Assembly (NCBI GenBank): GCA_963744405.1
Contig: CAVUTO010000018.1
Location: 881-64,880, forward strand
Source: Vicinamibacterales bacterium
Lineage (GTDB): Bacteria; Acidobacteriota; Vicinamibacteria; Vicinamibacterales; JAMQPK01
DNA length: 64,000 nt
Direction of reading: 5' to 3'
Shown here: positions 8,034-46,198 of the stretch, piece after piece
Numbering within the stretch: position 1 is the stretch's first letter
How the letters are laid out: each line of letters begins with the position of its first letter
Made by a program: the position numbers and the translations under genes
Notes under the pieces: generated by a model
Databases searched by the model: none
The model's input: the letters and a program-made list of their open reading frames with translations, nothing else
What the model was told of the DNA's origin: nothing

Positions 8034-10079
8034 TTGGCGAAGGCGGTATGGGGACAGGTCTTTCGCGCCCGCGACACGAAGCTCAATCGCGACGTGGCGC
8101 TGAAAATCCTGCCCGACTCTTTCGCGCGCGACGCGGAGAGGCTGCAGCGATTCGAGCGTGAGGCGCGGACCCTGGCCGCACTGAACCACCCCGGCATCGC
8201 ACAAATCTACGGTACCGTCGAGGCCGAAGGGCACGAGGCGCTCGTCATGGAGCTCGTGCCCGGCCGCACGCTGGACGAGGTCATTCGCTCGAGCGCAGTC
8301 CGCACCGGCGCGGGCCTGGCGATACCCGACGTCGTCAGAATCGCGTCGCAGATCGCCGAGGCTTTGGAAGCCGCGCACGAGGCCGGCATCGTGCATCGCG
8401 ATCTCAAGCCTTCCAACGTCAAGGTCCGCGATGACGATGTGGTCAAGGTTCTCGATTTCGGCCTCGCGCGTGCGAGCGATTCCTCCGCGGCCAACCCCGT
8501 GGTGAGTCCGTCGACGGCCACGAGGCTGTCGCCGGCAGTGACCCAGGACGGGGTGATCCTTGGTACTGCCGGCTACATGAGTCCGGAGCAGGCGCGGGGG
8601 CGTTTGGCCGACAAGCGTTCCGACATCTGGGCCTTCGGCGCCGTCGTCTGGGAGATGCTGTCGGGCCGTCAGCTCTTCGGCGGCGAGACGGTCGCCGAGG
8701 TGATCGCCGCCGTGATCAAGGACGCGCCGGACCTCAACGCGCTGCCAGCCAACACGCCGCCTGGCCTGCGCCGGCTGCTCGAGCGATGCCTCGAGCGCGA
8801 TCCCAAACTGCGGCTCCGCGACATCGGCGAGGCGCGCATCGCCCTCACGCGGGCCGACGAGCCGCGCGACGTCGCATCGCCGGCGTCGCGATCGGCCGGT
8901 CGTATGCTCCTACTGGCGCTGGGCGTGTTCGGCATTGCCGCCGCGGCGGGTATGGCTAGCTGGATCATGAAACCCGGTGCGCCGGCGGCTCCCGTCCGCC
9001 GTTTCGACTTGCCGCAGACCATTGCCGACAACCGGAGTGCGTCGTTCGCGCCGGATGGCAACCAGATCGCCTACATCAAGGATGGGCGGTTGTACCTCCA
9101 CTCACTCGCCTCCGGAGTGGCGGCCGATCTCGGCGCCGTGCCTCCCGGCGCGGAGAACCTCTTCTGGTCGCACGACAGCCAGACGATTGGCTTCGCCGCC
9201 GAATCGACCATCCGCACAGTTCCGGCCACCGGAGGCACACCGCTCGTCGTCTGCCGGATTCCCGCATCCGGCCAGATCATGGGGGCGCTCTGGTTGCCCG
9301 ACGACACCATCGTGTTTGCCGTGTGGCGGGAGAGCGTCTACCGCGTGGCGGCGACGGGCGGCACGCCCGAGTTGCACGTTGCGCTCGATTCGGCGACGGA
9401 GGTCGATGCCCATTCGCTGACGATGGCGCCTGGCAATCGGCTGCTTCTGACCATCGACCTGCGTGGAGAGGTGGACAATCAGCGCGTGGACATCGTTGAA
9501 AACGGCCGGCGGATTCCGCTGTCGAGTGACGTCGATGTGTGGATTCCGCAGTTCGTCCCCCCGAACCATCTGCTGTTCGTGCGACGGCAAACGAACCCGG
9601 GCGTCTGGACAGTGCCATTCGACGGCGGCCCGCTCGACCTGACGAGGGCGTCGATGGTCCAACCCGGCGCGGCCGGTTTCGCCGCCGCCCGCGATGGCAC
9701 ACTCATGCTACGGTTCATGCCGAAGGAACGGCGTGACCTTGTCTGGGTGACCCGTTCCGGAACGACGACGACGGTTCCGGGCCGGGCGCTCGAGATGACT
9801 GCCGGAACCTTCGGACTGGCGCCGGACGGCGGCCGTGCACTCATCTCGACCCTGGGACCCGACTTCAGGGAGGAAGTCGTCGTACGCGATCTCGCCGCGG
9901 GCACGGACACACGCGTGCCACCGCCGCGACCAGTGAGCGCGATGATGACCGGGGCCACTGTCTCCTGGGCGCCTGGCGGACGCCTGTTCTTCGGCATTGG
10001 CGGCGTAGAAACGTCCGAGATCTTCGATTGGCCCGCCGATGGATTCCGACCGGGGGGCGCAAGCTCGTCGCGGGCCTGA
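8034..10079 (+). CDS. Ser/Thr protein kinase with a TM segment and a PD40/TolB-like beta-propeller; the 5' end is frame-disrupted
   Basis: 'RDTKLNRDVALKIL', 'HRDLKPSNVKV', 'DFGLAR', 'GTAGYMSPEQ', then 'FAPDGNQIAYI' and 'WSHDSQTIGFA'. The true N-terminus ('LAPGARLGVYEV', 'SAAIGEGGMG') sits at 7988-8060 in two other frames, implying about 3 indels in 80 nt. Confidence 0.8.
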   Translation: MAKAVWGQVFRARDTKLNRDVALKILPDSFARDAERLQRFEREARTLAALNHPGIAQIYGTVEAEGHEALVMELVPGRTLDEVIRSSAVRTGAGLAIPDVVRIASQIAEALEAAHEAGIVHRDLKPSNVKVRDDDVVKVLDFGLARASDSSAANPVVSPSTATRLSPAVTQDGVILGTAGYMSPEQARGRLADKRSDIWAFGAVVWEMLSGRQLFGGETVAEVIAAVIKDAPDLNALPANTPPGLRRLLERCLERDPKLRLRDIGEARIALTRADEPRDVASPASRSAGRMLLLALGVFGIAAAAGMASWIMKPGAPAAPVRRFDLPQTIADNRSASFAPDGNQIAYIKDGRLYLHSLASGVAADLGAVPPGAENLFWSHDSQTIGFAAESTIRTVPATGGTPLVVCRIPASGQIMGALWLPDDTIVFAVWRESVYRVAATGGTPELHVALDSATEVDAHSLTMAPGNRLLLTIDLRGEVDNQRVDIVENGRRIPLSSDVDVWIPQFVPPNHLLFVRRQTNPGVWTVPFDGGPLDLTRASMVQPGAAGFAAARDGTLMLRFMPKERRDLVWVTRSGTTTTVPGRALEMTAGTFGLAPDGGRALISTLGPDFREEVVVRDLAAGTDTRVPPPRPVSAMMTGATVSWAPGGRLFFGIGGVETSEIFDWPADGFRPGGASSSRA

Positions 10080-13622: not shown

Positions 13623-13756
13623 TTGCCGTACCCAATCAGATCGGCGCGAATCTGAACCTGGCGCGGGCCCTCCCGGGGATAAGACAAGTCAGCTGTCGAA
13701 AATCCCGCCCGTCCCAGGGACTTTTTCGCTTTAGGATTGCCATCACGGCAGTCCTC

Positions 13757-14417
13757 ATGCTCCGCCACGTGTTTGCCTGGTTCGCAATGCTCGTCATCGC
13801 GGTTGCGAACGGAGCGCCGGGCGTTGTGAGGACGATGGGGTTGGCTGTGTCGTTGCCCTTGCTGTTGGCCCTGCAGGCAACAGCTCAACAGGTTGACGCC
13901 ACTGCCGAGCCCGCCCCGCTGGCCCGTGGCTACCGTACTCGCACGCTGGCCGGAGGCTGGGGGCACTCGTGGTTGCACGGCTGGCCTGGCTACGGCAAGG
14001 CGGTCAGCGACATTCAGTACTTCGGCTTCTACCCGCAGATGGGCTGGTTCGTCACGAATTGGCTCGAACTGTACGGCGAAGGGACGGTGCACCTGTACTA
14101 TCGCCCCGATGTTTCCATTCTCGGGGGAATTGTCGGCTTCGGCGGCCGGCACTACTTCCTGAGGGACCGGCCGTGGACACCTTATTACACCCTGGCCGGC
14201 GGAATGGCTTGGACGTCCCTCGAGGTGCCGGAGGTGGACCGGATTCTGGAATTTCCAGGTGGTGTGGGGCGCAGGTATCAAGCGGATCACTCGCCGCGGG
14301 CCGGGGCTGATGCTGGAGTTCCGCAACCACCACATCTCCAACGCCGGCACTCGCGGCGAGAACCTCGGCGTCAACGCCGCGACGGTGGTCGTCGGTGTCC
14401 ACTGGGTGCTGCGGTAA
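13757..14417 (+). CDS. PagL-like lipid A deacylase / acyloxyacyl hydrolase outer-membrane protein (one frameshift at ~14249)
   Basis: After 'EVPEVDRIL' the frame must shift by one base to read 'NFQVVWGAGIKRITRRGPGLMLEFRNHHISNAGTRGENLGVNAATVVVGVHWVLR*'. This carries the HxSN catalytic motif, and the stop is at 14415-14417. Confidence 0.6.
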
Positions 14418-14895
14418 GTCGGGCCGACAGGCGGTGAAGGCAAACACCATCGGCGGCAGTCGCAACGATCAACCTGGCGTCGGCACCGACTTAGGCGTCT
14501 GTTAAGGCTCAGGCCAATGTCTCGGTGAATTCCCCATCGCTTGGCGGACTACCCCGGAGTAATCCGCCGAGAAATGTCGGAGTCACCCGCATCGCTGGAC
14601 AGAAATCGCCAACTTCAGTTGACCGCGACCCCGATGAGCGGCAACGCCGCCTCAGAGCGCACGGCGTTGTAACCCTCTAAACGTGCCGGTCCTACTGCGG
14701 CTTAGACTTCACCCAGCCGCGCTTGTCAACCAGAACGCCGCGCTTTACAAAGACGAAGTACTCGATACCGTCACCAGGATCTGCGTACTCCAGCATCACT
14801 TGTTCGCTCGCCATGTTAAGGAATTCTGCAGCGGGCGCCAACCTGGCGAAAAGCCGGGCTCGCCAGCCTTGAATTGATCCTGTGCAACGGTAGGA

Positions 14896-14971
14896 CTCTA
14901 TCGGGAGTGACCCGGCGCGCGGACGCACGCTTCGAGCCCGGATGAGGACCGCCGGGTCACTTTCGATAGAG
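14896..14971. other. Conserved end-proximal hairpin of IS copy 1
   Basis: The arms CTCTATCGGGAGTGACCCGGCG and CGCCGGGTCACTTTCGATAGAG form 22 bp with two G-T pairs. Copy 2 has the same structure with a compensated C:G to T:A change. Confidence 0.5.
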
Positions 14972-15224
14972 CCGTTTGGACCAAGCCGCTGGCGTTTGCG
15001 GCGGACGCGGGCCGGTCGGCTATGGGCGTTCGAATCGTGACGAGCCCCGAGGCGTTCGGGTGCGCGTCTTCGCGATGGAGGCCTGATCGAGGCGGTCGAG
15101 GACGTCGCCGGCATGTCGGATCGACATGACGGATGCGACACGGCGATCGCGGCTGTGGACAGACCTCCGGTGCTCGCGCGTGGGAGCGCGGCTGACGGCG
15201 GAGTGGCGAGACGCGGGCGGCGGC

Positions 15225-16419
15225 TTACGAGCTGTCATAGACGAGGTCGGCGAGGAGCGCTGCAAGAAAGAGCTGCCGCGCGGTCAGTCGTTCGACGATG
15301 CGCATAGGCGCGCCACAGCGCGGACACGGCCAGGACGCTCGTGGCGTGCGGTGACTGAGCGGCGCGGTCGGTGGCGGCGGCGCACCGCGAGCGACCTGCT
15401 CGACACGTGGGCAAGATCGGCGGGTGCGAGCAGCGAGGGGCGAGCAAGCCCGAAGTAGCGGATGCGGACGAAGCGTTTCGGGAGGACGTGCAGCAAGAAA
15501 GCGTCGGAGGAAGTCGTCGACGTCGAGCGTCAGCGTGCGCATCTGGCTCCCGTGCCGATAGTCCTTCCACCGAAACGAGACCGTGTCGTCGGTGACGGCG
15601 ACGAGTCGGTGATTCGAGATGGCGACGCGGTGGGTGTACCGCGCGAGGTAGTGCAGGACGTGGGCGGGGCTGCCAAAGGGCGGCTTCGCGTAGACCACCC
15701 ACGGTTGGTGATGGAGCGATCGGAGCCACCGCGCGAAAGGCGGACTCGGGTGCCAGCGCCTGCAAGGCCCCAGGAAACGAGAGCCGTCCCTCCCGCCACG
15801 CCTTGCGCAAGCCGGCGACGAGTTTCCCGCGAAAGACCTGCCTCAGCACCTTCACGGGCAGAAAGAAATTCGGTCGCGCGTGGATCCACCGCGCCCCATC
15901 GGGCGACAGGCCGCCAGCAGGGACCACGCAGTGGACGTGCGGGTGATGCTGCAGGCGTTGTCCCCAGGTGTGGAGGACCATCAGTCCCCCAATCGCCGCG
16001 CCCAGGCGTTTCGGATTCGCCGCGACCTGCAGCAAGGTCGCGGCGGTGGCCTGAAACAGGAGGTCGTAGACGACGCGTTTATTCGCCAGCGCGAGCCGTG
16101 CCAGCGGTTCCGGCACCGTGAAGACGACGTGGACGTAGCCCACCGGCAGGAGCTCGTGCTCCCGCGCGGCCACCCAGGCGTTACGGGCGGCTGTGAGGCA
16201 CTTCGGGCAATGCCGATCCCGACAGCTGTTGTACGAGAGCGCCGACTGCGCGCACTGGTCGCAGCGATCGCGGTGCCCGCCGAGTGCCGCGGTTCGACAC
16301 TGGGCGATGGCCCGGAGGACGCGCCGATGGTGCCCGGTCACCCAGGCGCAGTGCGTCTCCAAGAAACGATCGCCGTGTTGGCGCACGATGTCGGCCACCT
16401 CAAAGGGTGGCCGCGTCAC
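15225..16419 (-). pseudogene. IS91-family Y2 (rolling-circle, HUH) transposase, at least 3 frameshifts
   Basis: 'CDQCAQSALSYNSCRDRHCPKC' is the zinc-binding motif. 'HTWGQRLQHHPHVHCVVPAGG' is the HUH motif. 'HYLARYTHRVAISNHR' is the Y2 motif. The pieces are spread over ORFs 15235-16980, 15225-15698 and 15284-15496. The GTG start at 16419 overlaps the recombinase TGA. Confidence 0.75.
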
Positions 16420-17314
16420 CGCCGGTGCTTCAGCCGCGTCCGTCGCGCGGTGTCGGGCGCCGCGAGGGTCAGCGCGTCCAAGGGACTGGCGACGGCCTGG
16501 AGATGTTTCTGGGAGAGATGGAGATAGAGCACGGTGTGCCGGATCTCCACGTGGCCAAGGAGCAGCTGAATCGTCCGGAGGTCCGCGCCACTCTCCAGTA
16601 AGTGGGTGGCGTACGAATGGCGCACCAGGTGCGGCGAGCAGCGCTTGCGCACGCCGGCGCGCCGGGCCGCGACGACGCACGCGTCCCAGAGGACCTTGGG
16701 CGTGATGGGCTTGTCGGCGCGCCAGCCGTCGACGGTGCCCGGAAACAGCCACGTCTTCGGCCGCATCCACCGGTAGTAGGCGCGCAACGTCGTCAGGAGC
16801 GTCGGGCTGAGCGGCACATACCGATCTCGTCCGCCCTTTCCCGCGCTGGATGTGAATGAGCATCCGCCGGCTATCGATGTCCGCGACCTGCAGCTGGCGC
16901 AGCTCCGCGTTCCGCATGCCGGTCGAGTACAGGACCATCAGCATCGTGCGGTGCGACAGACTGTCGGCGGCGTCGATCAACGCGCGCCATCTCCTCGACG
17001 CTCAGGATCTTGCGGCAGCCGCCGCGGGGCTTTGGGATAGGGCGTGTCGTCGAGCAGGTACCGACGCTTCAGCGTCTTCACGAAGAAGAAGCGCAACGCC
17101 GCGACGTGGAGGCGAACCGTCAACGGTCGCATCTTCCGCTCGATGCAGCAGATACGCTTGGTAGCGATCGGAAATGCGTCTGATTCAGCCGGTCAGGCCG
17201 GCACTTGAAATGTCGGGCGAATTGCTCGACGGCGTGAAGATACGTCGAGATGGTCGTCGGCGCGTAGTTACGGCGCTGGAGCTCCTCCAGCATGATCTGG
17301 CGGCAATGGGTCAC
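16416..17314 (-). pseudogene. Tyrosine recombinase (phage-integrase family), frame-disrupted
   Basis: N-terminal SAM-like 'MTHCRQIMLEELQRRNYAPTTISTYLHAVEQFARHF' (17120-17314). Core 'ADSLSHRTMLMVLYSTGMRNAELRQLQVADID'. C-terminal 'HLVRHSYATHLLESGADLRTIQLLLGHVEIRHTVLYLH' (16416-16817). AGGAGG lies 6 nt upstream of the GTG. Confidence 0.75.
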
Positions 17315-17468
17315 AAGACACCTCCTGTGACCCCCACGCTACCCCGACGATCGAGCGAGGCTTACGCGTAGCGTCCGCCGCGCCAGCGGCTTGGTCCAAC
17401 GCCGTAGTGTAGAGATACCGATCGCTCCACACCAGGCGACCAATTGCGGGTAATCCTCTGATGGTTTA

Positions 17469-20465
17469 ATGCTGATGACGCCTGACCAATGGTTGGAGGT
17501 CCAGCGGATCTATCACGCGGCCTTGGCGCTAAGCGCCAACGACCGGGCCAGTTTTCTCGACCAGGCGTGCGCGGGCGACGACACACTACGCCGTGAAGTC
17601 GAGTCGCTGCTCGAGCATGAGCTGAGCGTGGAGGGCTTTCTGGCGACGACGCGGACCGTGGACGCCGACCCCGAGGTCAAGCCGCGTTCGCTCTCCCCTG
17701 GCACGATCTTCGGCCCCTACCGAATTCTCCATTTGCTCGGCCGCGGCGGCATGGGGATCGTGTACGAAGCAGAGGAAGTCGACAGCGCGCGTCGCGTGGC
17801 GCTGAAGGTGATCGCCACGCGCCTGCAGAACCAGGTCGAGCGTGATCGCTTTCTGCGCGAGGGCCGGCTGGCTGCCTCGATCAATCATCCAAATTGCGTT
17901 TACGTTTTCGGGGCCTGCGAGATCGATGGCCAGCCCGCGATCGCGCTGGAGCCGATGCTGGAGACTCTCGCCGATCGCCTGCACCGCGACGGCCCGTTGC
18001 CGCCAGCGGCGGCCGTTGACGCGATTCTCCAGGTTGCTCGAGGGCTCGCGGCCGCGGCAGATGGCGGCATTCTGCATCGCGATGTCAAGCCCTCGAACTG
18101 CTTCATCGGCGACCACGGCCTCGTCAAGATCGGCGATTTCGGGATTTCGCGATCGGCGCGTCCTGCCATCGACACGACGCAGCTCTCCAGGGTCGGACAT
18201 GTCGTCGGGACCCCAAGCTATGCCTCTCCGGAGCAGCTTCACGGCGCCCCGCTCGACACGCGCAGCGACATCTACGGCGTAGGCGCCACGTTGTTCGAGC
18301 TGCTCACCGGTCGCACGCCCTTTGTCGCGGCAGACCTGATGTCGATGCTGATGGCGGTGGCGAATGATCCTCCGCCCGCGCCCCACACGTTCGACCGGAC
18401 GATCCCGAAGGGTTTGAGCGCGGTCGTTGTGCGTTGTCTCGCAAAAAAACCGGAGCACCGGTTCGCAGACTACCAGCAGCTCGCCGCAGCACTCGAGCCA
18501 TATGCATCGGCGAGCCCTACCGCCGCGACCCTCGGTCGTCGATTCGTGGCCGGAACCATCGATCTCGCGATCGTGAGTGCGCCGCTCATCGCACTCGGCA
18601 TCCTGGGTACGAGTCTCGCAGAATTCGTCATCATGTTGCTCTACTTCGGCCTCTTCGAAAGCATCTGGAGCGCGACCCCCGGCAAGGCACTCTGCGGCCT
18701 TGCCGTCGTCGGCGCAAACGGTCAACGTGCCAGCCCGGCTCTCGTGATGGCTCGGGCGGCCGCTTACGCCATGGGGCTGCTTTTGATCACGTTCATTTCG
18801 ACACGGGAACCCCAGGGTCTCGAGCAGACGCTGGGCGGCCCGTTGGCATTCTTGACCGTCCAGGCGTTCGCATTGCTGCCACTCGCGATCATGTTCTCGA
18901 CCGCGCGGCGTCACAATGGCTTCGCTGGCCTGCACGATCTCGGCACCCGCACGCGCGTTGTCGAGCGCCGAGTGAGAGCCGCTCGAGCCGCGCTCACCAC
19001 ATCGGCAGGTCCGCCGCGGCATGTGATCGCCGGACGAGCGGGACCCTACGAAGTGCTGCCAGACGCCGTACGAGGCCTGGCTGACGGATGGCGATGGGGA
19101 TTCGACCCGCGCTTGCGGCGCACTGTCTGGCTCCGGTTCAGCGATCCCGGGACGCCACCCGTTGTTCCTGCACGCAGGGCGGTGGGCCGCGGCACACGGT
19201 TACGCTGGCTGGCTGGACGCCGGCTCGATAACGAGGCGTGGGACGCGTACGAGGTGGCCGAGGGTGTACCGTTGGCCGAGGCCACGCGGGACAGGCACGA
19301 GTGGACCGACGTTCGATGGTGGCTACTCGACCTCGCCAGGGAGTGCGCGGCGATGACAACTGCCGATCGGGCGCCGCGCAGTCCGCAACGCGTGTGGGCG
19401 CTCTCGTCTGGTGGCGTCAAGTGGCTCGACGATCCAGTGGCGGATGCCGTCGCTCCGGCCGACACAGTCGCCACGGATCAGGAACTCTTGATCGCCATTG
19501 CACGGACCGCGCTCGGCGGCGAGCTCGAACCGGTGACCGCGAGCTCGGTGTCTCGCCACCCGCTTCCTCTCGGGGCGTGTCGCTTCCTCGAGCGCCTCGC
19601 CGGTCCGCCGGGCCGGGACATCGGTGCGATGGTGCGAGAGCTCGAGGCACTGACCAAACAGCGCGCCGTCCTCACGCGGGCATGGCGAATGGTGCCTGTC
19701 GCGATCTGTGCGCTAGTGCCCGCGTTCGTTTTGAGTGCGGCGATGGTGTTCACGACGACCAAGGACGTCGACCGAAGCCGCGTGCCGATCGACGAGCGCG
19801 CGGCGGGAGCCTTGCTGTGGCACCTCGCGCTCGCCGACCGCGCGTGGATAGCGATTTCGATGGACGAGCGCGAATCGATCGAGCGCGCGCTGGCGACTCG
19901 ATACAGGGACGAGCTGTCCGAGGGTCGATTGTTCACCCCACGGAACATGGATTATCTCGATCTCCGACGACTATCACCAGGCGATCGCGAGCGATGTGCT
20001 GCGGCGTTATCCACAACCGCTCCCCGATCGGCAGGATCAAGTCGACACTCGAGCCGCCGCCATCATTCGACGAGCGACCCAGGACCCGGTGCGGCCGTGG
20101 TACGAGCCCATCCTTTCGGGAGCGTTCCAGATGTACTTGTCGGTCGCCGTGCTGGCACTCGTCGTGAACTTCGCCTTTCGGCGTGGCTTGATACGCATGA
20201 TGGGACTCGAGCTCGTGACGGCCGACGGGCGGCCTGCGTCACGGCTGCGTGTGCTCGCCCGTACGGCGATCACGTGGTCACCTGTGTTAATGGTTCCGTT
20301 CGTGATCCCGTTCGTCCCGGGAATCCCGCCAAGTCTCACTGGGACACCCTGGTGGATGTTGGTAATGATCGCGGGCGGCGTCTTCGTCGTCATCACGCCC
20401 GCGCGCGGCGTGCAGGATCGCATCGCTGGCACCTGGGTCGTGCCAAGATAGCGGCCGGGGGATAG
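17469..20465 (+). CDS. Ser/Thr protein kinase with RDD-family membrane domains (the last ~170 aa of this ORF are out of frame)
   Basis: 'MTPDQWLEVQRIYHAALAL...REVESLLEHE' is the N-terminal extension shared with the other kinases. 'GRGGMGIVYEA', 'HRDVKPSNCFI', 'DFGISR' and 'GTPSYASPEQ' are kinase motifs. The RDD-like stretch is 'RRFVAGTIDLAIVSAPL...WSATPGKALCGLAVV'. Confidence 0.8.
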   Translation: MLMTPDQWLEVQRIYHAALALSANDRASFLDQACAGDDTLRREVESLLEHELSVEGFLATTRTVDADPEVKPRSLSPGTIFGPYRILHLLGRGGMGIVYEAEEVDSARRVALKVIATRLQNQVERDRFLREGRLAASINHPNCVYVFGACEIDGQPAIALEPMLETLADRLHRDGPLPPAAAVDAILQVARGLAAAADGGILHRDVKPSNCFIGDHGLVKIGDFGISRSARPAIDTTQLSRVGHVVGTPSYASPEQLHGAPLDTRSDIYGVGATLFELLTGRTPFVAADLMSMLMAVANDPPPAPHTFDRTIPKGLSAVVVRCLAKKPEHRFADYQQLAAALEPYASASPTAATLGRRFVAGTIDLAIVSAPLIALGILGTSLAEFVIMLLYFGLFESIWSATPGKALCGLAVVGANGQRASPALVMARAAAYAMGLLLITFISTREPQGLEQTLGGPLAFLTVQAFALLPLAIMFSTARRHNGFAGLHDLGTRTRVVERRVRAARAALTTSAGPPRHVIAGRAGPYEVLPDAVRGLADGWRWGFDPRLRRTVWLRFSDPGTPPVVPARRAVGRGTRLRWLAGRRLDNEAWDAYEVAEGVPLAEATRDRHEWTDVRWWLLDLARECAAMTTADRAPRSPQRVWALSSGGVKWLDDPVADAVAPADTVATDQELLIAIARTALGGELEPVTASSVSRHPLPLGACRFLERLAGPPGRDIGAMVRELEALTKQRAVLTRAWRMVPVAICALVPAFVLSAAMVFTTTKDVDRSRVPIDERAAGALLWHLALADRAWIAISMDERESIERALATRYRDELSEGRLFTPRNMDYLDLRRLSPGDRERCAAALSTTAPRSAGSSRHSSRRHHSTSDPGPGAAVVRAHPFGSVPDVLVGRRAGTRRELRLSAWLDTHDGTRARDGRRAACVTAACARPYGDHVVTCVNGSVRDPVRPGNPAKSHWDTLVDVGNDRGRRLRRHHARARRAGSHRWHLGRAKIAAGG
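19996..20451 (+). CDS. True C-terminal part of the 17469 kinase (second RDD-like membrane domain); frameshift near 19950-19990
   Basis: 'YLSVAVLALVVNFAFRRGLIRMMGLELVTADGRPASRLRVLARTAITW...ARGVQDRIAGTWVVPR' has the RDD-family ending. The frame is open upstream as 'DYHQAIASDVLRRYPQ'. Confidence 0.55.
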   Translation: MLRRYPQPLPDRQDQVDTRAAAIIRRATQDPVRPWYEPILSGAFQMYLSVAVLALVVNFAFRRGLIRMMGLELVTADGRPASRLRVLARTAITWSPVLMVPFVIPFVPGIPPSLTGTPWWMLVMIAGGVFVVITPARGVQDRIAGTWVVPR

Positions 20466-22293: not shown

Positions 22294-22539
22294 GTGTCGC
22301 TCCTCCTCAATGATTCGCGCCGCTGGCGCCGTGAGTAACCACCATGCAACTCCGCGTCCGCCCGACCCGGGGGGCGGGGCTCACGCGCATCGCATGGCGC
22401 GTCAAGGAGTTGCGGCTATCGGGAGGGCTCGGGTCTCCGGACAGACCACGAAATCTCGTGGCCAGCCCCACCGGGGGTGGTGGGTATATGGCGACCGATA
22501 GCCGCGAGCCGTTCTGCGTATACTGTGCGAACCTCCCCG

Positions 22540-23715
22540 ATGACACCTGAACGGTGGCAGCAAATCTCACAGCTCTACATCGCTGCGCTGGCGTGCGACG
22601 TGGCGGAGCAAACCGCGTTTCTGCACGATGCCTGTGGCGACGATGCGGAGCTGCGAAGCGAGGTCGAGTCGCTGCTCGCCCAGGAAAGTCTGCCCGATAG
22701 TTTTTTGAATCCGTTAAGAGGATTAGAGATTGGGAAGTCGGAATTCGATCTGACTGGTCAGCAGATCGGCATCTATAAGGTTATGTCCCTCCTGGGTGTC
22801 GGCGGGATGGGCGAGGTCTATCGCGCGCGCGACTCGAAGCTCGGTCGCGAAGTGGCGATCAAGATCCTGCCAAGGCTTTTCATCAGCGATCCTGATCGGT
22901 TGACGCGATTCGAACGCGAAGCGCGCGTGCTTGCGTCCCTCAATCATCCCCACATCGGCGCGATCTACGGAGTGGAGGACGCGGACGGGATTCGGGCCCT
23001 GGTGCTCGAGCTGGTCGAAGGCGAAACGCTGGCCGACCGCATCGTGCGCGGGCCCATACCTCTGGCCGATACCCTGACCATCGCGCGACAGATCGCCGAT
23101 GCCCTTGATGCAGCCCATGAGAAGGGGATCATTCACCGCGATCTCAAACCGGCCAACATCAAGATCACGCCCGACGGCATCGTCAAGGTGCTGGACTTCG
23201 GGCTCGCGAAAGCGACGGCGGGTGACGGAGCGACACCGGACTTCACGCAGTCGCCCACGGTGACGGCAGGTGGCACACGCGAGGGAGCCGTGCTCGGGAC
23301 TGCGGCCTATATGAGTCCCGAACAAGCGCGAGGGCAGGCAGTCGACAAGCGAACCGACATCTGGGCGTTCGGCTGTGTGGTGTACGAAATGCTGACCGGC
23401 CGAATCGCATTCGCGGGGCAGACGGTCTCGGACACGATAGCGGCCATTCTCGAGCGCGAGCCTGATTGGTCTCGGTTGCCTGCATCCACGCCGGCGAACA
23501 TTCTTCGTGTGCTGCGACGCTGTCTTCAGAAGGATGCGAGACGCCGCCATCGCGATATTGGCGATGTTCGGATCGAGCTCGATGACTCGCCGAGCGACGC
23601 TGCGCACACGGTGCCTGTGGCTCGCCCTGTTCTGTTGAGCCGGCTACGGTCGTGGGTTGGCGGCGCCGTTGCCGGGAGTCATCCTGAAGGCGCTGCAATG
23701 AGAGGGATCACCTGA
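22540..23715 (+). CDS. Ser/Thr protein kinase, C-terminally truncated tandem paralog (kinase domain only)
   Basis: ATG at 22540 ('MTPERWQQISQLYIAALACD'). '[13 protein letters not shown]', 'HRDLKPANIKI', 'DFGLAK' and 'GTAAYMSPEQ'. The ORF ends about 25 aa after the kinase domain, where the paralog has its TM helix. Confidence 0.8.
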   Translation: MTPERWQQISQLYIAALACDVAEQTAFLHDACGDDAELRSEVESLLAQESLPDSFLNPLRGLEIGKSEFDLTGQQIGIYKVMSLLGVGGMGEVYRARDSKLGREVAIKILPRLFISDPDRLTRFEREARVLASLNHPHIGAIYGVEDADGIRALVLELVEGETLADRIVRGPIPLADTLTIARQIADALDAAHEKGIIHRDLKPANIKITPDGIVKVLDFGLAKATAGDGATPDFTQSPTVTAGGTREGAVLGTAAYMSPEQARGQAVDKRTDIWAFGCVVYEMLTGRIAFAGQTVSDTIAAILEREPDWSRLPASTPANILRVLRRCLQKDARRRHRDIGDVRIELDDSPSDAAHTVPVARPVLLSRLRSWVGGAVAGSHPEGAAMRGIT

Positions 23716-23804: not shown

Positions 23805-23948
23805 CGGCGGGTGGCGCCGATTTTTCTTTGTCCGCCGCGCCCCTCGACACCGCTCGGGGCGCCCTGAGCCTCGTCGAAGGGCGCAGGGCCGTCTCACGTA
23901 CACGCGCTTGTCGGCCCGAGGACGGGCAAAGGAAAATCGGCGACAGGG
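23805..23948 (+). repeat. Structured intergenic repeat, copy A (long inverted-repeat form with a 44-nt insertion in the loop)
   Basis: Arm GGCGCCGATTTTTCTTTGTCCG pairs with CGGGCAAAGGAAAATCGGCG (20 bp, 2 G-U). The core GGCCCGAGGACGGGCAAAGGAAAATCGGCGACAGG is shared with 26022, 46144, 54410 and 63643. Confidence 0.6.
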
Positions 23949-24026
23949 GCCTGAAGCTGGCGAACGTTACGAAGAACTGCAGGATGTGCCGCGAGCCGTT
24001 CTGCGTATACTGTGCGAACCTCCCCG

Positions 24027-25796
24027 ATGACACCTGAACGGTGGCAGCAAATCTCACAGCTCCACATCGCTGCGCTGGCGTGCGACGTGGCGGAGCGAAC
24101 CGCGTTTCTGCGCGATGCCTGTGGCGACGATGCGGAGCTGCGAAGCGAAGTTGAGTCGCTGCTCGCCCAGGAAAGTGTGCCGGAGAGTTTTTTGGAACCG
24201 TTACCGGGGTTGGGGATGAGGGAGTCAGAATTCGATCTGAGTGGTCAGCAGGTCGGCATCTACAAGGTGATGTCCCTGCTGGGCGTCGGCGGCATGGGCG
24301 AGGTCTATCGCGCGCGCGATACGAAGCTGGGACGCGACGTGGCGATCAAGATCCTACCACCCCACTTCACGAGCGATCCCGATCGGCTGGCGCGGTTCGA
24401 GCGTGAAGCGCGGATGCTGGCGGCCCTCAATCATCCGAACATCGGCGCCATCTACGGCCTCGAAGACGCCGACGGCGTTCGTGCATTGGTGCTCGAGCTG
24501 GTCAACGGCGAGACGCTGGCCGAGCGAATCGTGCGCGGACCTATCCCTCTCGCTGAAACTCTGCTCATTGCGCGACAGATCGCGGACGCGCTCGAGGCGG
24601 CGCATGAAAAGGGCATCGTTCATCGCGATCTGAAACCGGCCAACATCAAGATCACCCCTGACGGTGTCGTGAAAGTCCTCGACTTTGGCCTGGCGAAGGC
24701 GGCGTCCAGCGACGCGGCGACCGGCGATCTGACGCAGTCGCCGACGATAACTGTCGGCGGGACGCGGGACGGAGTCATCCTCGGGACGGCGACGTACATG
24801 AGCCCCGAGCGGGCGACGGGCCGCCCCGCAGACAAGCGCGCAGACGTGTGGGCGTTCGGCGTTGTGCTCTACGAGATGCTGACAGGCCGGCGCGCCTTCG
24901 AAGGAGAGACATTCTCAGACGTACTGGCGAAGGTGATCGAACGTGAACCAGATTGGACGGTGCTCCCGGCCACGACTCCTCCTCGCCTGCGTGAATTGTT
25001 GCGGAGATGTGTGAGGAAGGATCCGAAGACACGGCTCCAGGCAATAGGAGATGCGCGCGTTCAGATCGATGAGCTAATCAGCGGCGCGACGGAGGAAACC
25101 GCTACGGCAGTAAAAGCGCCCACCGCCTACAGAAGCTGGCGCGTTCACGTGGCGTGGGCGTCAGTGCTGCTCGCCGCCGTCGTCACCGCGATCTGGCTTT
25201 CTGCGGGGACTGTTTCTGAGAATCTTCCCGCCCCAAACGCCGTCCCGGTGATCGTGTTGATGGATTCGCCGCTGCCCGGGCGCGTTTACGATCCGCGCAC
25301 GCTTGCCGAAGGAGGCACGAACGCGGACGACGTGACGGACGTGCTGCGGGACTTGCGGGTCGCCATCCGCAAGGAAAACACGAGCGCCGCGTGGCATCGC
25401 GAGGAGCAGGTCGTGGGAGGGAACCCCGACTTGATCGTCGCCCATCTGTCCTGTCTCCTCGATGCACGCGTAGGAGAAGGCCAGACGGCCATATCGGCAC
25501 ACCTGGTCGATCTTGCAGAGAACCGGTTCATCGTCTTTCTCGCGTATGTGGCGGCGCGCAATCCGCGCACCCGATTCATCGTGTATTCACGTTCAGTTTT
25601 CCAGACGCATGGCGGCGAAGAACAGTGGGTCGCAACGCAGGTCGCTCGGCTGCCGGTGCTGAAAGATCGCTTGAACGCCTTCACCGTGCCAGGCGGTCGG
25701 GAGAAGGCGACGTTTCGTGATCCCCAGAGTGCGCAACTGCTCCGCGCGCGAGTCGCACAAGTTCTTGGTCGGGGGCCGAAAGGAGCTTCGAACTGA
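24027..25796 (+). CDS. Ser/Thr protein kinase with a TM helix and an uncharacterised ~190-aa C-terminal domain
   Basis: 'MTPERWQQISQLHIAALACD', '[13 protein letters not shown]', 'HRDLKPANIKI', 'DFGLAK', and TM 'VAWASVLLAAVVTAIWL'. I did not recognise the C-terminal domain. Confidence 0.8.
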   Translation: MTPERWQQISQLHIAALACDVAERTAFLRDACGDDAELRSEVESLLAQESVPESFLEPLPGLGMRESEFDLSGQQVGIYKVMSLLGVGGMGEVYRARDTKLGRDVAIKILPPHFTSDPDRLARFEREARMLAALNHPNIGAIYGLEDADGVRALVLELVNGETLAERIVRGPIPLAETLLIARQIADALEAAHEKGIVHRDLKPANIKITPDGVVKVLDFGLAKAASSDAATGDLTQSPTITVGGTRDGVILGTATYMSPERATGRPADKRADVWAFGVVLYEMLTGRRAFEGETFSDVLAKVIEREPDWTVLPATTPPRLRELLRRCVRKDPKTRLQAIGDARVQIDELISGATEETATAVKAPTAYRSWRVHVAWASVLLAAVVTAIWLSAGTVSENLPAPNAVPVIVLMDSPLPGRVYDPRTLAEGGTNADDVTDVLRDLRVAIRKENTSAAWHREEQVVGGNPDLIVAHLSCLLDARVGEGQTAISAHLVDLAENRFIVFLAYVAARNPRTRFIVYSRSVFQTHGGEEQWVATQVARLPVLKDRLNAFTVPGGREKATFRDPQSAQLLRARVAQVLGRGPKGASN

Positions 25797-25949
25797 AGGC
25801 TCCACCATTTTAACGACCGTGATTGACACCTCGCTACTTGAGATTAGGTTTTAGTCGCGATCACCGCGAGTGTCATCGGACTGACGAACAGCCGCGCCGG
25901 ATCGTCGAGCTCAGCCAGTTCGCGGTCCCCCTGCGTGACGTCTGCGCCT

Positions 25950-25993
25950 GCGCGCACCGGCTGCGAAGTGTTTAGCTCAGCTAAAGCTGAGCC
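25950..25993 (+). repeat. Second intergenic repeat module (CGCGCACCGGCTGCGA ... TTAGCTCAGCTAAAGCTGA hairpin)
   Basis: The same two blocks recur at 54561-54607, and the first block recurs at 26197-26214. GCTCAGC-taaa-GCTGAGC is a 7-bp hairpin. Confidence 0.4.
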
Positions 25994-26021
25994 CTACGAA
26001 TAAAGCTGAGCCCATCCGCTG

Positions 26022-26062
26022 TTGTCGGCCCGAGGACGGGCAAAGGGAAATCGGCGACAGGA
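26022..26062 (+). repeat. Structured repeat, core-only copy D
   Basis: TTGTCGGCCCGAGGACGGGCAAAGGGAAATCGGCGACAGGA has an outer TGTCG/CGACA stem and an inner GCCCG-agga-CGGGC stem. Confidence 0.55.
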
Positions 26063-26081
26063 ACTCAGAGTTCTGACGCAC

Positions 26082-26178
26082 CATTGGTGGATTGGTAGAT
26101 TCGTAGATTGGTAGATTACGGAGCTTGCACAGTGCCTTTCTTAATCTTCCAATCTACCATTCTTCCAATCTACCAATG
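26082..26178. repeat. 97-bp imperfect palindrome built from four TTGGTAGATT-type units
   Basis: The 37-nt arms 26082-26118 and 26142-26178 are reverse complements at 32/37 positions. Each arm is itself a ~16-nt tandem duplication. The 23-nt loop contains GCAC-a-GTGC. Confidence 0.55.
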
Positions 26179-26218
26179 CGCGCGTTCAAGTCGACCCGCA
26201 CACCGGCTGCGAGAAACC

Positions 26219-27430
26219 TCATGGAATCCTGCCTCGTTTGAGCGTGAGAACCGGCACGAGCTTCTGTCTCGCTTTCCGAATTTCCCCCTGCGAGTCGACA
26301 AGCGAGAAATCGCCGTCAACGAGGTCGAACACAGCGACATCGGCCGGGCTGCCAGGTTTCAGCGACGCCATTTCTCCGGTTTTGTCGATAGCCCGTGCGG
26401 GAGCGACTGTCGCGAGCTCCACGACTTTCTCGAGCGTGAGACCGAGATGGAGGAACTTCGTCATTGTGGTGGGAAGGTCGAAAACGGGACCGAGAGCGCT
26501 GTACGCATGGATGTCGCTGCTAATCGTCGCCGGCGCGAATTTTTGCTGCAGCGCCGCTTCGGCAGCGGCGAACGAGAAACTGCCGCTGCCGTGGCCGACG
26601 TCGAACAGAACTCCGCGCTCTGACGCGCGCCGGATGTAATCGGACACGCGCCCATCTGGTCCAATCACACCGCCCCCGCCGCCTCGACGAAAGGCGTGCG
26701 TCACGATATCGCGCGGGCGCGTCAGCTCGAGGATCTTCTCCATGGGTGAGTACGGATTGCCCACATGGATCATCAACGGCTTTCCGATCTGGTCGGCCAC
26801 GCTGCGCGCTGCGCGTACGGCCTCGATGTCGTTGGGACCCGAATAGTTTTCGCCGCACCGGACCTTGATGCCGACGATGACGTCGGCGTGCTCCTTCGCC
26901 ACGCGGAGGGCCGCCGGAACATCGATCATCCGCGTGTCCACGAGCTCGCCGGGCTGGCCGATCAGTCCGATTCGCGAGATGTTGAGAAACGCGAGAACCC
27001 GTGTACGTGAGCGGTCGATCACGAGTCGCCTGAAGCCCTCGAAGCTGTCAGACCCCGACGTGCCGGCGTCGATCGCAGTCGTGACGCCGCGCGCGATGCA
27101 GTACTGATCGAGGTCGACACCCCAGTGCGAAACGCCGGCAAACCCATGGGTGTGCAAATCGACCAGCCCGGGCGTGACAATTTGACCGGCCACCGGAACG
27201 GTCCGCTCGGATTCGGCCGCATCGATGTCACGGGCTATCGCCGCAATCCTGCCGCCAGCAAGGGCCACGTCGGCAGGCGCGTTGAAGGATTGCGATGGGT
27301 CGATGACCCGTCCTCCCTTGAGAAGGAGCTCATACTTTCGTCCCTGGGTCTGACCAAGCGCGCGGGGGCCGGCCATCAGCACAGGCATGGAACCCATGCT
27401 GAGGGCGCATATCATTTGTCGTCTGTTCAT
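26219..27430 (-). CDS. Amidohydrolase/deacetylase-family metallohydrolase (dihydroorotase-like fold), exported
   Basis: 'GLVDLHTHGFAG' (HxH), 'IKVRCGE', 'MIHVGNP', 'THAF', 'FDVGHGSGSF' and 'ISSDIH'. Confidence 0.8.
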   Translation of the reverse strand: MNRRQMICALSMGSMPVLMAGPRALGQTQGRKYELLLKGGRVIDPSQSFNAPADVALAGGRIAAIARDIDAAESERTVPVAGQIVTPGLVDLHTHGFAGVSHWGVDLDQYCIARGVTTAIDAGTSGSDSFEGFRRLVIDRSRTRVLAFLNISRIGLIGQPGELVDTRMIDVPAALRVAKEHADVIVGIKVRCGENYSGPNDIEAVRAARSVADQIGKPLMIHVGNPYSPMEKILELTRPRDIVTHAFRRGGGGGVIGPDGRVSDYIRRASERGVLFDVGHGSGSFSFAAAEAALQQKFAPATISSDIHAYSALGPVFDLPTTMTKFLHLGLTLEKVVELATVAPARAIDKTGEMASLKPGSPADVAVFDLVDGDFSLVDSQGEIRKARQKLVPVLTLKRGRIP

Positions 27431-35605: not shown

Positions 35606-35624
35606 CGCTGAACTCCGCAGTCGC

Positions 35625-36054
35625 TCATCGCCGGTATGCGGCGCGTCGGCCTTTTAGATCCGCGACCGTCGCCGCATGGCGGGCGTCCTGCGCCAGGTTC
35701 GTCGTTTCGCCGGAATCGCGTTCCATGTCGTAGAGCTGCGCGCCATCCTGCCCCGCACCCCACTCGATGTAGCGCCATCGGTCGGTCCGCACCGCATAAC
35801 CGTTCTGTGTCTGCGTGAACGCGGCGTCTTTGACCGACGCTGACGGGTTGTCGACGAGCGGCGCGAGGCTGACGCCGTCGAGCGGCCCTGCGAGCTTGAT
35901 GCCGGCGAGCTCTGCAAGCGTCGGATACAAGTCGACGAGCTCGGCGAGGCCGCGCGCTGCCGCGCCCCTTACCTTCGCACGTGGAACTGCGATGATGAGC
36001 GGAACCCGCGCGCTCCGCTCGAACAGGCTCCGTTTTTGCCACAGGCCGTGATCG
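35625..36054 (-). pseudogene. Sulfatase 3' fragment (last ~143 codons), duplicate of 41216-41645
   Basis: 35620-36054 versus 41211-41645: 435 nt, 9 substitutions, no indels (by eye). Homology stops abruptly at 36054. The ORF-track extension to 36275 is unrelated read-through. Confidence 0.7.
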
Positions 36055-36121
36055 ACTACAGGCGCAGCCGCCAAACGCTGGACACAATGCCGGTCACTGG
36101 GCCTGCCGCAGAGTTTGCGGT

Positions 36122-36337
36122 GATGTCCGGAACGGATACGTGGCCACGTACACGCGCGAGAGGCCGGGTATGAGCGCGTTCGCGCTCGAGGACGGCGTCG
36201 TGTATCACACCTACTCCACTTATGCGCGTTGAGTGGACGGCCTCTGGGGCATGTACCAGTGGCTCGACCGCGCACCCAAGGGGCGCAACGAGGTGGGCGC
36301 CTGGTGGCGCCGCCATGACGAGTACAACAAGGGCTAG
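36122..36337 (+). pseudogene. DUF899 (thioredoxin-like) C-terminal fragment with an in-frame TGA
   Basis: 'DVRNGYVATYTRERPGMSAFALEDGVVYHTYSTYAR*VDGLWGMYQWLDRAPKGRNEVGAWWRRHDEYNKG'. The TGA at 36230-36232 sits where the family has Gly. The N-terminal ~150 aa are missing. Confidence 0.55.
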
Positions 36338-41201: not shown

Positions 41202-41215
41202 TCAGCGATTGTCGC

Positions 41216-42619
41216 TCATCGCCGGTACGCGGCGAGTCGGCCTTTCAGATCCGCGACCGTCGCCGCATGGCGGGCGTCCTGCGCCAGGTTCGTCGTTTCG
41301 CCGGAATCGCGTTCCATGTCGTAGAGCTGCACGCCATCCTGCCCCGCACCCCACTCGATGTAGCGCCATCGGTCGGTCCGCACCGCATAACCGTTCTGTG
41401 TCTGCGTGAACGCGGCGTCTTTGACCGACGCTGACGGGTTGTCGACGAGCGGCGCGAGGCTGACGCCGTCGAGCGGCCCCGCGAGCTTGATGCCGGCGAG
41501 CTCTGCAAGCGTCGGATACAAGTCGACGAGCTCGGCGAGGCCGCGCGCCGCCGCGCCCCTTGCCTTCGCACGTGGGACTGCGATGATGAGCGGAACTCGC
41601 GCGCTCCGCTCGAACAGGCTCCGTTTTTGCCACAGGCCGTGATCGGCCAGGTGATATCCGTGATCGCTCGTGAAGACGACGATCGTGCTGTCGGCAAGAC
41701 CCAGACGATCCAGCGCGTCGAGCACCTGGCCAACCTGCGCGTCCATGAAGGTGGTCGAGGCCCAATAGGCCTGAATGGCCGCGCGGCGCTGGTCGTCGGT
41801 CATGACGTCTTGTTCTTTGAAGGCGCTCTGATAGGCCGGCGCCGGCCTCCGCGCCCGATCGTCGTCTGAGAGCCGCGGCAGCTCGATCGCTTTCATGGGG
41901 TAGAGATCGAAATATGATTTGGGCGCGACATACGGTGTGTGCGGCCGGTAGAATCCGACAGCCAGAAAGAAGGGTTGATTGTCTCGCTTGAAGCGCTCGA
42001 GCAGCCGCACGGCTTCATGCGCGGCGATGCCGTCGGTCTGCTCGGAATCCGGTCCTTCGTCGGCCAGCCAGCTGAGAGTCGCACCGAACTGTCCCGGCAG
42101 GAGCGAGAAGATCTTGTGGTGACTCTCGCGGTCGCGTCCGCGCGGATTGATCGTGAGATCCCACGATGGATAATCGTCGAGGCCGGCGGTTCCGATGTTG
42201 TTCGGCACGCCATAGTGATAGAGCTTGCCGACCCGGGCTGCGACCCAGCCGTTCGTGCGAAATGCCTGCGGCAGCGTCACTGCACCGGGCAGCTTCTCGC
42301 GGAAGTGCGGCGACATGGGGTTTTTGCCCGGATTCGACAGTACACCCGTCGCGTCGGGGCGTCGCCCGGTAAGAAACGACGAGCGGCTCGGGCTGCACAA
42401 CGGATATTGGTTGTAGGCGCGATCGAATCGCACTCCGCGCGCCGCCAGCCGGTCGATGTTCGGCGATCGAACCGTGCTGCCGTAGGCGCCCAGGTCATTG
42501 TTCAGATCGTCTGCGATCAGAAACAGGATGTTCAGTCGCGGTGGCGGCGACTGCGCCTGGACGAACATTGAGACGGCCAGGAGAGAAACGGCGAGACAGG
42601 CCAGCAGTTTTCGAGACAT
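41216..42619 (-). CDS. Sulfatase (formylglycine-dependent, iduronate-2-sulfatase-like), secreted
   Basis: Signal peptide, 'NILFLIADDLN', the FGly motif 'LCSPSRSSFLTGRRP', 'GKLYHYG' and 'IVVFTSDHGYHLADHGLWQK'. Confidence 0.85.
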   Translation of the reverse strand: MSRKLLACLAVSLLAVSMFVQAQSPPPRLNILFLIADDLNNDLGAYGSTVRSPNIDRLAARGVRFDRAYNQYPLCSPSRSSFLTGRRPDATGVLSNPGKNPMSPHFREKLPGAVTLPQAFRTNGWVAARVGKLYHYGVPNNIGTAGLDDYPSWDLTINPRGRDRESHHKIFSLLPGQFGATLSWLADEGPDSEQTDGIAAHEAVRLLERFKRDNQPFFLAVGFYRPHTPYVAPKSYFDLYPMKAIELPRLSDDDRARRPAPAYQSAFKEQDVMTDDQRRAAIQAYWASTTFMDAQVGQVLDALDRLGLADSTIVVFTSDHGYHLADHGLWQKRSLFERSARVPLIIAVPRAKARGAAARGLAELVDLYPTLAELAGIKLAGPLDGVSLAPLVDNPSASVKDAAFTQTQNGYAVRTDRWRYIEWGAGQDGVQLYDMERDSGETTNLAQDARHAATVADLKGRLAAYRR

Positions 42620-46182: not shown

Positions 46183-46198
46183 TGCGCGACGCGATGCG

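Follow-up and report, generated by a model that had tools for sequence, protein, structure and literature searches.

The described elements closest to the sequences considered here are the REPINs, doublets of REP sequences that form hairpins, that occur in Pseudomonas and Enterobacteria, and that are mobilised by RAYT transposases (Bertels & Rainey 2011, PMC3116915). In a survey of REP sequences (Di Nocera et al. 2013, PMC3733652), Acidobacteria are mentioned only for one tyrosine transposase group. Our literature search found no paper linking REP sequences with Vicinamibacter, and no description was found of REP- or REPIN-type repeats in the Vicinamibacterales, which are abundant and poorly studied soil bacteria.

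The present analysis concerns a stretch of 64,000 nucleotides from a Vicinamibacterales bacterium, hereafter called the window, together with related contigs, and centers on a repeated palindrome designated M3. M3 is a real repeat family for which neither Rfam nor the literature provided a description; the type of element is well known and ordinary. Because its anatomy and population pattern match those of REP dimers and REPINs, M3 is read here as a non-autonomous mobile palindrome, and we consider it reasonably probable that the family is a non-coding, non-autonomous REP-dimer/REPIN (MITE-like) repeat whose distribution is restricted to one lineage. A preliminary description of the window had left three possibilities unranked, namely a MITE, a REP/BIME-like element and a small structured RNA, of which the REP/BIME-like element is favored by the evidence presented below.

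The M3 repeat in the window and in related contigs

Scanning of the window with a 35-nt core, GGCCCGAGGACGGGCAAAGGAAAATCGGCGACAGG, returned five plus-strand matches with 0-1 mismatch each (23913-23947, 26027-26061, 46145-46179, 54523-54557 and 63754-63788), while 100 shuffles gave 0 matches and the chance expectation is 0, and the initial report of five near-invariant core copies in a single orientation within the window is thereby borne out. Equally well founded was the claim of an upstream arm that pairs over 20 bp in the three long copies: the left arm GGCGCCGATTTTTCTTTGTCCGCC is present exactly, on the plus strand, at 23813, 54466 and 63698, and only in the long copies (A, B, and C), and the two T·G wobbles said to lie within this 20-bp helix are present. 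The outer TGTCG/CGACA stem that had been described for the core is found in four of the five copies and is missing from the copy at 46145. Each long copy constitutes a single long imperfect hairpin, with predicted folding energies of -64.8 to -92.9 kcal/mol (z -5.4 to -6.6) for plus-strand RNA, and a 153-nt stretch of copy C, when folded both ways, gave z values of -4.5 for the plus strand vs -2.3 for the minus strand.

Alignment of the copies indicates that the core, though indeed repeated, is not the natural unit; rather, the core forms the right arm of a longer palindrome, M3, which measures about 105-108 nt. The left arm of M3 is YGGCGGGTGGCGCCGATTTTTCTTTGTCCGCC and the right arm is GAGGACGGRCAAAGGAAAATCGGYGACAGGACCCGC, and between them lies an apical stem in which GGGCCG is paired with CGGCCC, closing a loop of variable sequence. 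Along its own reading direction, each arm is made up of the tag [T/A]G[T/A]C, then a small hairpin (in the right arm, GCCCG-AGGA-CGGGC), and lastly an A/T-rich tail. M3 is thus an inverted dimer of a ~45-nt unit, and as a whole it folds into an imperfect hairpin of about 50 bp. The ends of M3 pair with one another as terminal inverted repeats (GCGGGT with ACCCGC), with covariation at this position in copy L007a, and the unpaired bases of the bulges GAGGA and GCGCA are invariant. The family, which is described by the pattern GTCGGCCCGAGGACGGNCNAAGGAAAATCGG, has the consensus CGGAC at the position where the window copies carry the CGGGC variant. In copy A an extra 44-nt double hairpin is located between the left arm and the apex (~23837-23880), and the presence of the same type of 44-nt insertion in L008a, L008b, and the predicted protein P0126 defines a subfamily.

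The preliminary description had additionally proposed that the repeat adopts two mutually exclusive folds. Alternative folds are possible, since each arm of any REP dimer has its own small hairpin, and the "competing" local hairpin is the hairpin of one M3 monomer. Their existence does not constitute evidence for a switch between the two, however, and the long helix is more stable than the local fold by ~45 kcal/mol, making such a switch implausible.

The features of the window are as follows, with the modules M1, M2, and M4 being described in a later section:

23805-23952, plus strand: copy A, a full M3 of the insertion subfamily (MFE -92.9, z -6.6; covariance model 91.9 bits)
25946-25997, plus strand: M4 upstream of half copy s2, consisting of CGCGCACCGGCTGCGAAG, the hairpin GCTCAGCTAAAGCTGAGC, then CCCTAC
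26022-26062, plus strand: half copy s2, the right arm of M3 only, ending ...GACAGGA
26063-26193, no strand assigned: AT-richer palindrome of ~131 nt, interrupting the 3' end of s2 (MFE -57.5)
26194-26218, plus strand: displaced 3' end of s2 (ACCCGCACA) and the start of M4 (CCGGCTGCGAGAAAC)
46145-46187, plus strand: half copy s3, the right arm of M3 only
54364-54377, plus strand: left member of the perfect 14-nt direct-repeat pair (GCTCGCCACTTGGC) on either side of composite B
54412-54457, plus strand: M2 upstream of copy B, the 3' end of which (TCGCAGCC) pairs with GGCTGCGA of M4
54458-54566, plus strand: copy B, a full M3 (MFE -64.8, z -5.4; covariance model 118 bits)
54561-54609, plus strand: M4 downstream of copy B, its hairpin truncated after GCTGA
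54610-54623, plus strand: right copy of the 14-nt direct repeat
63606-63626, plus strand: M1 (AACGCCGTAGGGTAGACCGAT), equal to the last bases common to the copies of an IS91-like repeat
63644-63689, plus strand: M2 upstream of copy C
63690-63797, plus strand: copy C, a full M3 (MFE -65.3, z -6.4; covariance model 127 bits)

Half copies s2 and s3 are truncated remnants of M3, the former being split by a foreign palindrome that is unrelated to M3 and for which no second copy was found in the ~250 kb examined. The segment at 26194-26218 abuts the stop codon of an amidohydrolase gene (26219-27430, minus strand), and s3 takes up the greater part of the 66 nt that separate two convergent genes.

Family members beyond the window were sought by concatenating the translations of copy C in all six frames and comparing this single query with predicted proteins, a search in which about 11 predicted "proteins" matched significantly and proved to be translations of the repeat. 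With the copies on the contigs encoding six such proteins (L007-L012), on contig L001, and at an orthologous locus (L013), the set comprises 17 full M3 copies at non-homologous loci, distributed over the window and eight related Vicinamibacterales-type contigs, or 19 copies when the half copies s2 and s3 are included. Exact-pattern scans of genome and metagenome collections recovered one true copy, that of L001 (a Vicinamibacterales MAG), but these scans undercount, as the pattern used the CGGGC variant where the consensus is CGGAC, and they say little about rarity. Matches to the same scans in L002 and L003 were rejected as chance matches inside coding sequence, and a broader pattern gave 0 matches in viral contigs. 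A covariance model built from the 17 copies identified no further full copy in a search of ~250 kb; its weak matches inside an IS91-like integrase gene (E 0.05 and 0.9) were likewise rejected as ordinary GC-rich coding sequence.

The 64-kb window carries 5 copies and L013, over 14 kb, carries 1, and there are 0 in the ~60 kb formed by L004-L006 and L014. L004-L006 and L013 have genes in common with the window at ~90-97% nucleotide identity, and the genes that L001 and L010 have in common with L005 are 92% and 97% identical, respectively; by virtue of these common genes, the carrier contigs are tied to the window genome. In L009 and L011, M3 occurs as direct tandem pairs with other modules between the M3 units.

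Hairpin conservation, gene context, and orthologous sites

The mean pairwise identity of M3 copies is 91% within contigs and 89% between contigs, and when considered by part it reaches 91-95% in the arms and 100% in the apical stems, and 80% in the apical loop region. Across the 17-copy alignment, pairing is kept in 95.8% of cells and 7 pairs are changed on both sides, as compared with a figure of 1.6 for shuffled alignments (0/500) and of 0-3 after displacement of the partners by 1-3 columns, with the proviso that the copies are related by descent and that cell counts overstate the number of independent events. The divergent copy L013a (70% identity over alignment columns, 77% by BLAST) keeps its apical stem via compensatory swaps at three or four pairs, and in the outermost stem of L007a a G-C pair has been replaced by A-T with compensation. 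Template switching, in the absence of selection, can likewise give rise to compensatory-looking changes in DNA palindromes. The M3 hairpin is maintained.

Pairing within the hairpin is asymmetric between the two strands. A total of 66 cells hold a G·T wobble vs 12 that hold an A·C combination, and all main-stem polymorphisms common to several copies (5/5) preserve pairing on the plus strand, while the pair-breaking variants are, with one exception, confined to a single copy. Consistent with this asymmetry, the plus strand folds more stably in 14 of the 17 copies under RNA parameters and in 16 of the 17 under DNA parameters. The plus-strand wobble asymmetry described at first for the window is thus real, holds for the newly recovered copies too, and fits single-stranded DNA as well as it does RNA.

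All 19 copies are intergenic. According to the gene tables, ~17 of the 18 classifiable copies are located close to a gene 3' end in spacers whose bordering genes are convergent or co-directional, the distance to a stop codon being for most copies no more than tens of bases; the one copy found between divergent genes has an IS as its neighbor. Within co-directional gene pairs, ~2 copies are sense and 6-7 antisense by a count from the same tables. The repeat had initially been described as always residing on the plus strand, a statement that is accurate for the window and fails for the related contigs L010 and L012, each of which carries one M3 copy in each orientation, 2-3 kb apart or less. Copy orientation agrees with local GC skew in 14 cases and disagrees in 5, the skew being weak and the copies within a locus non-independent.

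The location of most copies near stop codons, between convergent or co-directional genes, bears directly on the question of whether M3 functions as a cis-acting RNA hairpin within mRNA 3' UTRs and is retained by selection for that reason; there it could block 3'-exonucleases, provide a site for RNase III, or aid termination, roles that have been suggested for certain REPs. REPs have a like 3'-end placement, and the case has been made that they work at the RNA level (PMC3733652). The compensatory changes that maintain the M3 hairpin, the G·U-compatible character of those variants that spread, and a match of the left arm to a weak terminator pattern on the plus strand (a 5-bp stem followed by ATTTTTCTTT) would all be in keeping with a role of this sort. 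The orientation of copies relative to the adjacent gene is mixed, however, such that the better-folding strand is often not the transcribed one, and sites of the same type retain half and interrupted copies. Furthermore, the terminator-like stem comprises just 5 bp, the full hairpin is not followed by a U-tract on the plus or the minus strand, and no intrinsic terminator was found on the minus strand of M3, which makes a canonical terminator unlikely. A cis-acting RNA is thus an unlikely, if still credible, explanation of the family, and an RNA role of M3 is in any case compatible with a mobile origin.

Comparison of orthologous sites provides a view of gain and loss. At the 3' flank of the PQQ-dehydrogenase gene, L014 possesses a 38-nt spacer without an element, L013 a full but divergent M3 enclosed by an outer palindrome of its own, and the window the half copy s3, nearer the stop codon; these look like independent events at a single gene end. 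The junction between DUF1501 and AP_endonuc_2 is a 30-nt spacer in L014, while in L001 a composite is found directly after DUF1501 and in the window composite B is found before AP_endonuc_2, the two having the same relative orientation. Synteny between the window and the AP_endonuc_2 loci of L013 and L014 breaks 12 nt upstream of the start codon. Similarly, the amidohydrolase loci of L004-L006, orthologous to the neighbor of s2, contain no M3 copies, and their similarity to the window ends at the stop codon. Between-genome similarity thus stops at the repeat in 4 of 4 comparisons, suggesting that the repeats mark rearrangement breakpoints. Each of the four comparisons includes a synteny break, and among them there is no clean filled-vs-empty pair with identical flanks; the flanking intergenic DNA of the copies is not alignable between related genomes.

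Direct repeats at the ends of copies were also considered. Within flanks of 200 nt, 16 of the 17 copies lack a convincing direct repeat indicative of target-site duplication, and a few flank matches of 9-10 nt occur at unequal distances from the element. Only composite B is bounded by a direct repeat, the 14-nt GCTCGCCACTTGGC at 54364 and 54610, and the check for target-site duplications that had been suggested for the long copies thus yields no consistent one. Copies in both orientations, accompanied by terminal duplications, had been named in advance as pointing away from an RNA and toward a plain MITE; both orientations do occur, and consistent target-site duplications are absent.

Under the favored reading, in which M3 is a non-autonomous mobile palindrome, a trans-supplied enzyme would copy the element, now or in the recent past, into further intergenic positions, and these new sites would mostly lie just past gene 3' ends, often within or beside other palindromic modules. 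From the wobble asymmetry we infer a single-stranded DNA step in this mobility, with the enzyme probably recognizing the folded plus strand of M3 as single-stranded DNA; such an enzyme would most plausibly be an HUH-type transposase (Y1/RAYT-like or Y2/IS91-like). Single M3 copies would later decay to half copies or take other insertions, and the dispersed copies would come to be marks of genome rearrangement sites.

Neighboring modules and further explanations

M3 mostly sits among the short repeated modules M1, M2, and M4. M1 is CGCCGTAGGGTAGACCGAT, M2 includes ...GCACTCGTCCGACAGTGACGCGTTTCGCAGCCCTCA, and M4 consists of CCGGCTGCGAGAAACTGAG, a short variable stretch, the hairpin GCTCAGCTAAAGCTGAGC and then CCCTAC. 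Copies L007a, L008a, and L013a have unrelated flanks, yet in each case the left and right flanks are complementary (duplex z of -3 or lower), and outer palindromes surround M3 in at least 5 copies. The pairing between M2 and M4, taken together with these complementary flanks, indicates that M3 is often found at the center of a larger palindrome.

The window also contains two copies of an IS91-like element (14887-17425 and 61131-63626), with genes for a tyrosine recombinase and for the domains Zn_Tnp_IS91 and Y2_Tnp; a frameshift in the second copy is suggested by its two ORFs, which overlap in different frames. Neither this element nor an IS110-like gene in L010 includes M3 sequence. No Y1_Tnp/RAYT domain was detected in the scanned window ORFs or in the locus gene tables (~250 kb, in which a single-copy gene would rarely be expected), and no transposase with ends matching M3 was found in the ~250 kb examined.

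Several observations would be in keeping with a link between the IS91-like element and the modules. Each IS copy terminates in M1-like sequence, the start of copy C lies 64 nt past the IS end, and M1 is located upstream of M3 in five independent copies, three of them seen in DNA (copy C, L001, and L010) and two in translation (P0126 and P0127). Moreover, the left end of the IS (ACGGTAGGACTC...GAGT) and the other strand of M4 (GTAGGGCTCAGCTTTAGCTGAGC) both consist of GTAGG followed by a short hairpin, and M1 also has GTAGGG, after which a short imperfect stem can follow in some copies. One rather improbable proposal is that the plus-strand hairpin of M3, with its invariant bulges, could be the substrate of an HUH enzyme new to such repeats, the candidate being the IS91-like Y2 transposase with its partner tyrosine recombinase, which would cleave GTAGG-plus-hairpin at both IS ends and on the other strand of M4; alternatively, within the same proposal, the hairpin could be a true strand-specific regulatory RNA. 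If the IS91-like Y2 route were to prove true, the system would represent a rolling-circle-mobilised analogue of the REPIN-RAYT system in Acidobacteriota.

It is a distinct and quite doubtful suggestion that the IS91-like element mobilises the entire mosaic, from M1 to M4 with M3 inside, either through rolling-circle read-through or through recognition of GTAGG-plus-hairpin ends. While the observations on M1, the IS ends and copy C listed above speak for such a process, the M1-M3 composites of L001 and L010 are without an IS91-like gene in the DNA examined, and L007 and L008 have M3 without M1 or M4. In addition, M1 and M4 are mutually inverted whereas the two IS ends are direct, and no sequence is common to M3 and the IS, the covariance-model matches within the latter being the weak, coding ones noted above.

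Also considered was a family of independently transcribed small RNAs that switch between the long helix and local hairpins, a highly unlikely explanation even though pairing is strand-asymmetric, unpaired bases such as GAGGA are invariant, and alternative folds are possible. The copies have no conserved promoter-like site alongside them, their upstream sequence varies from one to the next, and the long helix exceeds the local fold in stability by the margin given earlier. Truncated copies and tandem arrays, furthermore, resemble the decay and amplification of repeats and not genes, and the interrupted copies, the lack of a U-tract, and the variable orientation of M3 with respect to genes also speak against a dedicated RNA gene. 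Rfam, a search of which had been recommended at the outset, likewise lends the idea no support: the whole window gave no family match at the gathering threshold, and two composites searched by E-value returned only generic, sub-threshold miRNA-precursor hairpins.

Finally, it is scarcely credible that M3 copies are attC/integron-type recombination sites used by a tyrosine recombinase, an idea prompted by the single orientation of the window copies, their strand-specific folding and imperfect pairing, and the tyrosine recombinase gene that adjoins copy C but largely refuted by gene content and mixed orientation, in that direct reading of the copies reveals no R'/R'' core sites of the GTTRRRY type, the copies are 2-28 kb apart across ordinary chromosomal genes on both strands with no cassettes, both orientations exist elsewhere, and the recombinase belongs to the IS91-like unit, which is itself repeated.

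M3 among known repeat systems

Recognition of the M3 family has several practical consequences. Firstly, it serves as an aid to annotation, in that at least 11 predicted "proteins" of public databases can be identified as translations of M3. Secondly, the family flags sites of assembly breaks and genome rearrangement. Lastly, together with its covariance model, the family offers a starting point in the search for the enzyme responsible for its movement.

With regard to known systems, MITEs (e.g., the Correia element) and the PATEs, which are non-autonomous IS200/IS605 derivatives with hairpin ends, are, like M3, small and non-coding, with terminal inverted repeats and multiple dispersed copies, and the strand-specific imperfect hairpins of M3 are those expected of elements handled as single-stranded DNA. 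M3 differs from these elements in having neither a consistent target-site duplication nor a conserved flanking target motif, and no parent IS with matching ends is found in the ~250 kb examined. The BIMEs of E. coli and repeats of the RIME/ERIC type also bear a resemblance to the M3 mosaic, in which a palindromic unit is combined with short motifs (M1, M2, and M4) in variable order at intergenic sites. These repeats have no sequence relationship to M3, however, and the units of M3 arrays are in direct tandem and not in alternating orientations.

A likeness to the anatomy of M3 is also found in the GTAG- and CGTC-tagged REPs (Di Nocera et al. 2013, PMC3733652). The right-arm tag of M3, TGTC, is listed as a variant of CGTC, and as in these REPs the tag is followed by a small stem-loop with a 4-nt loop (PMC3733652). 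Tagged REPs also form inverted dimers able to fold as one large stem-loop, these dimers can sit in longer palindromes and in mosaic intergenic regions, and a preference exists for spacers between convergent or co-directional genes, near 3' ends (PMC3733652). Differences between the two are nonetheless apparent: the CGTC families have stems of 8-9 bp that start with A-T pairs (PMC3733652), whereas the small stem of M3 is 5 bp and all G-C, and each M3 arm additionally possesses an A/T-rich tail of 20 nt, paired with the opposite arm.

Membership of M3 in the REPIN-RAYT system proper is not established, as M3 is without a GTAG tag, GTAGGG being present only in the adjacent modules M1 and M4, and no RAYT was seen in the ~250 kb sampled. 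Unlike REPINs, moreover, M3 is hosted by Acidobacteriota, and its half copies, of which there are just two, are no more diverged than the full copies. Despite these differences, the likeness of M3 to REPINs extends to several levels: two highly conserved inverted arms surround a less conserved spacer, a long single-stranded DNA or RNA hairpin with compensatory changes is predicted, and the elements are extragenic, with singlets that are remnants of doublets and tandem clusters that include flanking sequence (PMC3116915).

Breakpoints and translated copies of the repeat

Copies of M3, the palindromic intergenic repeat of ~105-108 nt, coincide with synteny breakpoints: in every comparison with a related contig, similarity stops at or beside a copy, the places concerned being 26219, 46199 and 54322 of the window and 5899 of the related contig L001. 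The related contig L005 runs out precisely at the stop codon of the amidohydrolase gene, the point at which the window has its repeat cluster. Public databases hold at least 11 predicted proteins (P0121-P0131) that are whole or partial translations of M3, including ...GGWRRFFFVRRAGPS... and ...RVLSPIFLCPSSGRQ..., and in some the repeat-derived stretch is fused to a real gene at its C-terminus. All are annotation artefacts.

IS-like elements, palindromes and direct repeats

Elements and direct repeats in the window
14887-17425, genes on the minus strand: IS91-like element, copy 1
61131-63626, genes on the minus strand: IS91-like element, copy 2
26063-26193: AT-richer palindrome of ~131 nt, inserted in half copy s2, within its 3' end
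54364-54377 and 54610-54623: perfect 14-nt direct repeat GCTCGCCACTTGGC, flanking the whole M2-M3-M4 composite B

The IS91-like copies, 86-96% identical, encode a tyrosine recombinase and a Zn_Tnp_IS91/Y2_Tnp transposase, which form a single 581-aa ORF in copy 1 and two overlapping ORFs in different frames in copy 2. A GTAGG motif stands in direct orientation at both ends of the element, and the right ends of both copies continue into sequence resembling M1, one of the short modules neighbouring M3. The direct repeat, unique among the sequences examined, encloses composite B as a 232-nt insert, and could represent a long target-site duplication or the trace of a duplication event.

The palindrome in s2, perfect in appearance and containing repeated GATTGGTAGATT motifs (MFE -57.5), may constitute a second MITE-like family; no further copies were found in the ~250 kb examined (window and related contigs). 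On the related contig L010 (13251-13300), the M4 hairpin beside M3 copy L010b breaks off at GCTCAGCTGA and is followed by unrelated sequence, with a Transposase_20 (IS110-family) gene 400 nt away (13672-14052). This arrangement may reflect insertion of an IS110-type element in the hairpin.

Duplicated genes and the insertion in copy A

Paralogous Ser/Thr protein kinase genes are numerous in the window, and copy A, a full M3 copy, sits between two of them, a tandem pair whose initial 300 nt are 91% identical.

Genes and associated sequences
22477-23715 and 24012-25796: tandem kinase pair
8034-10079, 17469-20465 and 54640-57441: further kinase paralogues
35620-35919 and 41211-41510: direct repeat whose two 300-nt copies share 98% identity and lie 5.6 kb from one another
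45561-45920 and 45818-46132: methyltransferase-like gene, two overlapping ORFs in different frames, upstream of half copy s3
23837-23880: 44-nt insertion of the copy-A subfamily

The 300-nt repeat spans the 3' portion of sulfatase-type genes (SGSH_C domain at 35625-36275; 41216-42619). The apparent split of the methyltransferase-like gene may reflect a frameshift or a pseudogene. The 44-nt insertion, also present in copies a and b of the related contig L008, forms two small hairpins, and its second half (CCTGAGCCTCGTCGAAGGGCG) may resemble a GC-rich repeat motif of other soil bacteria.
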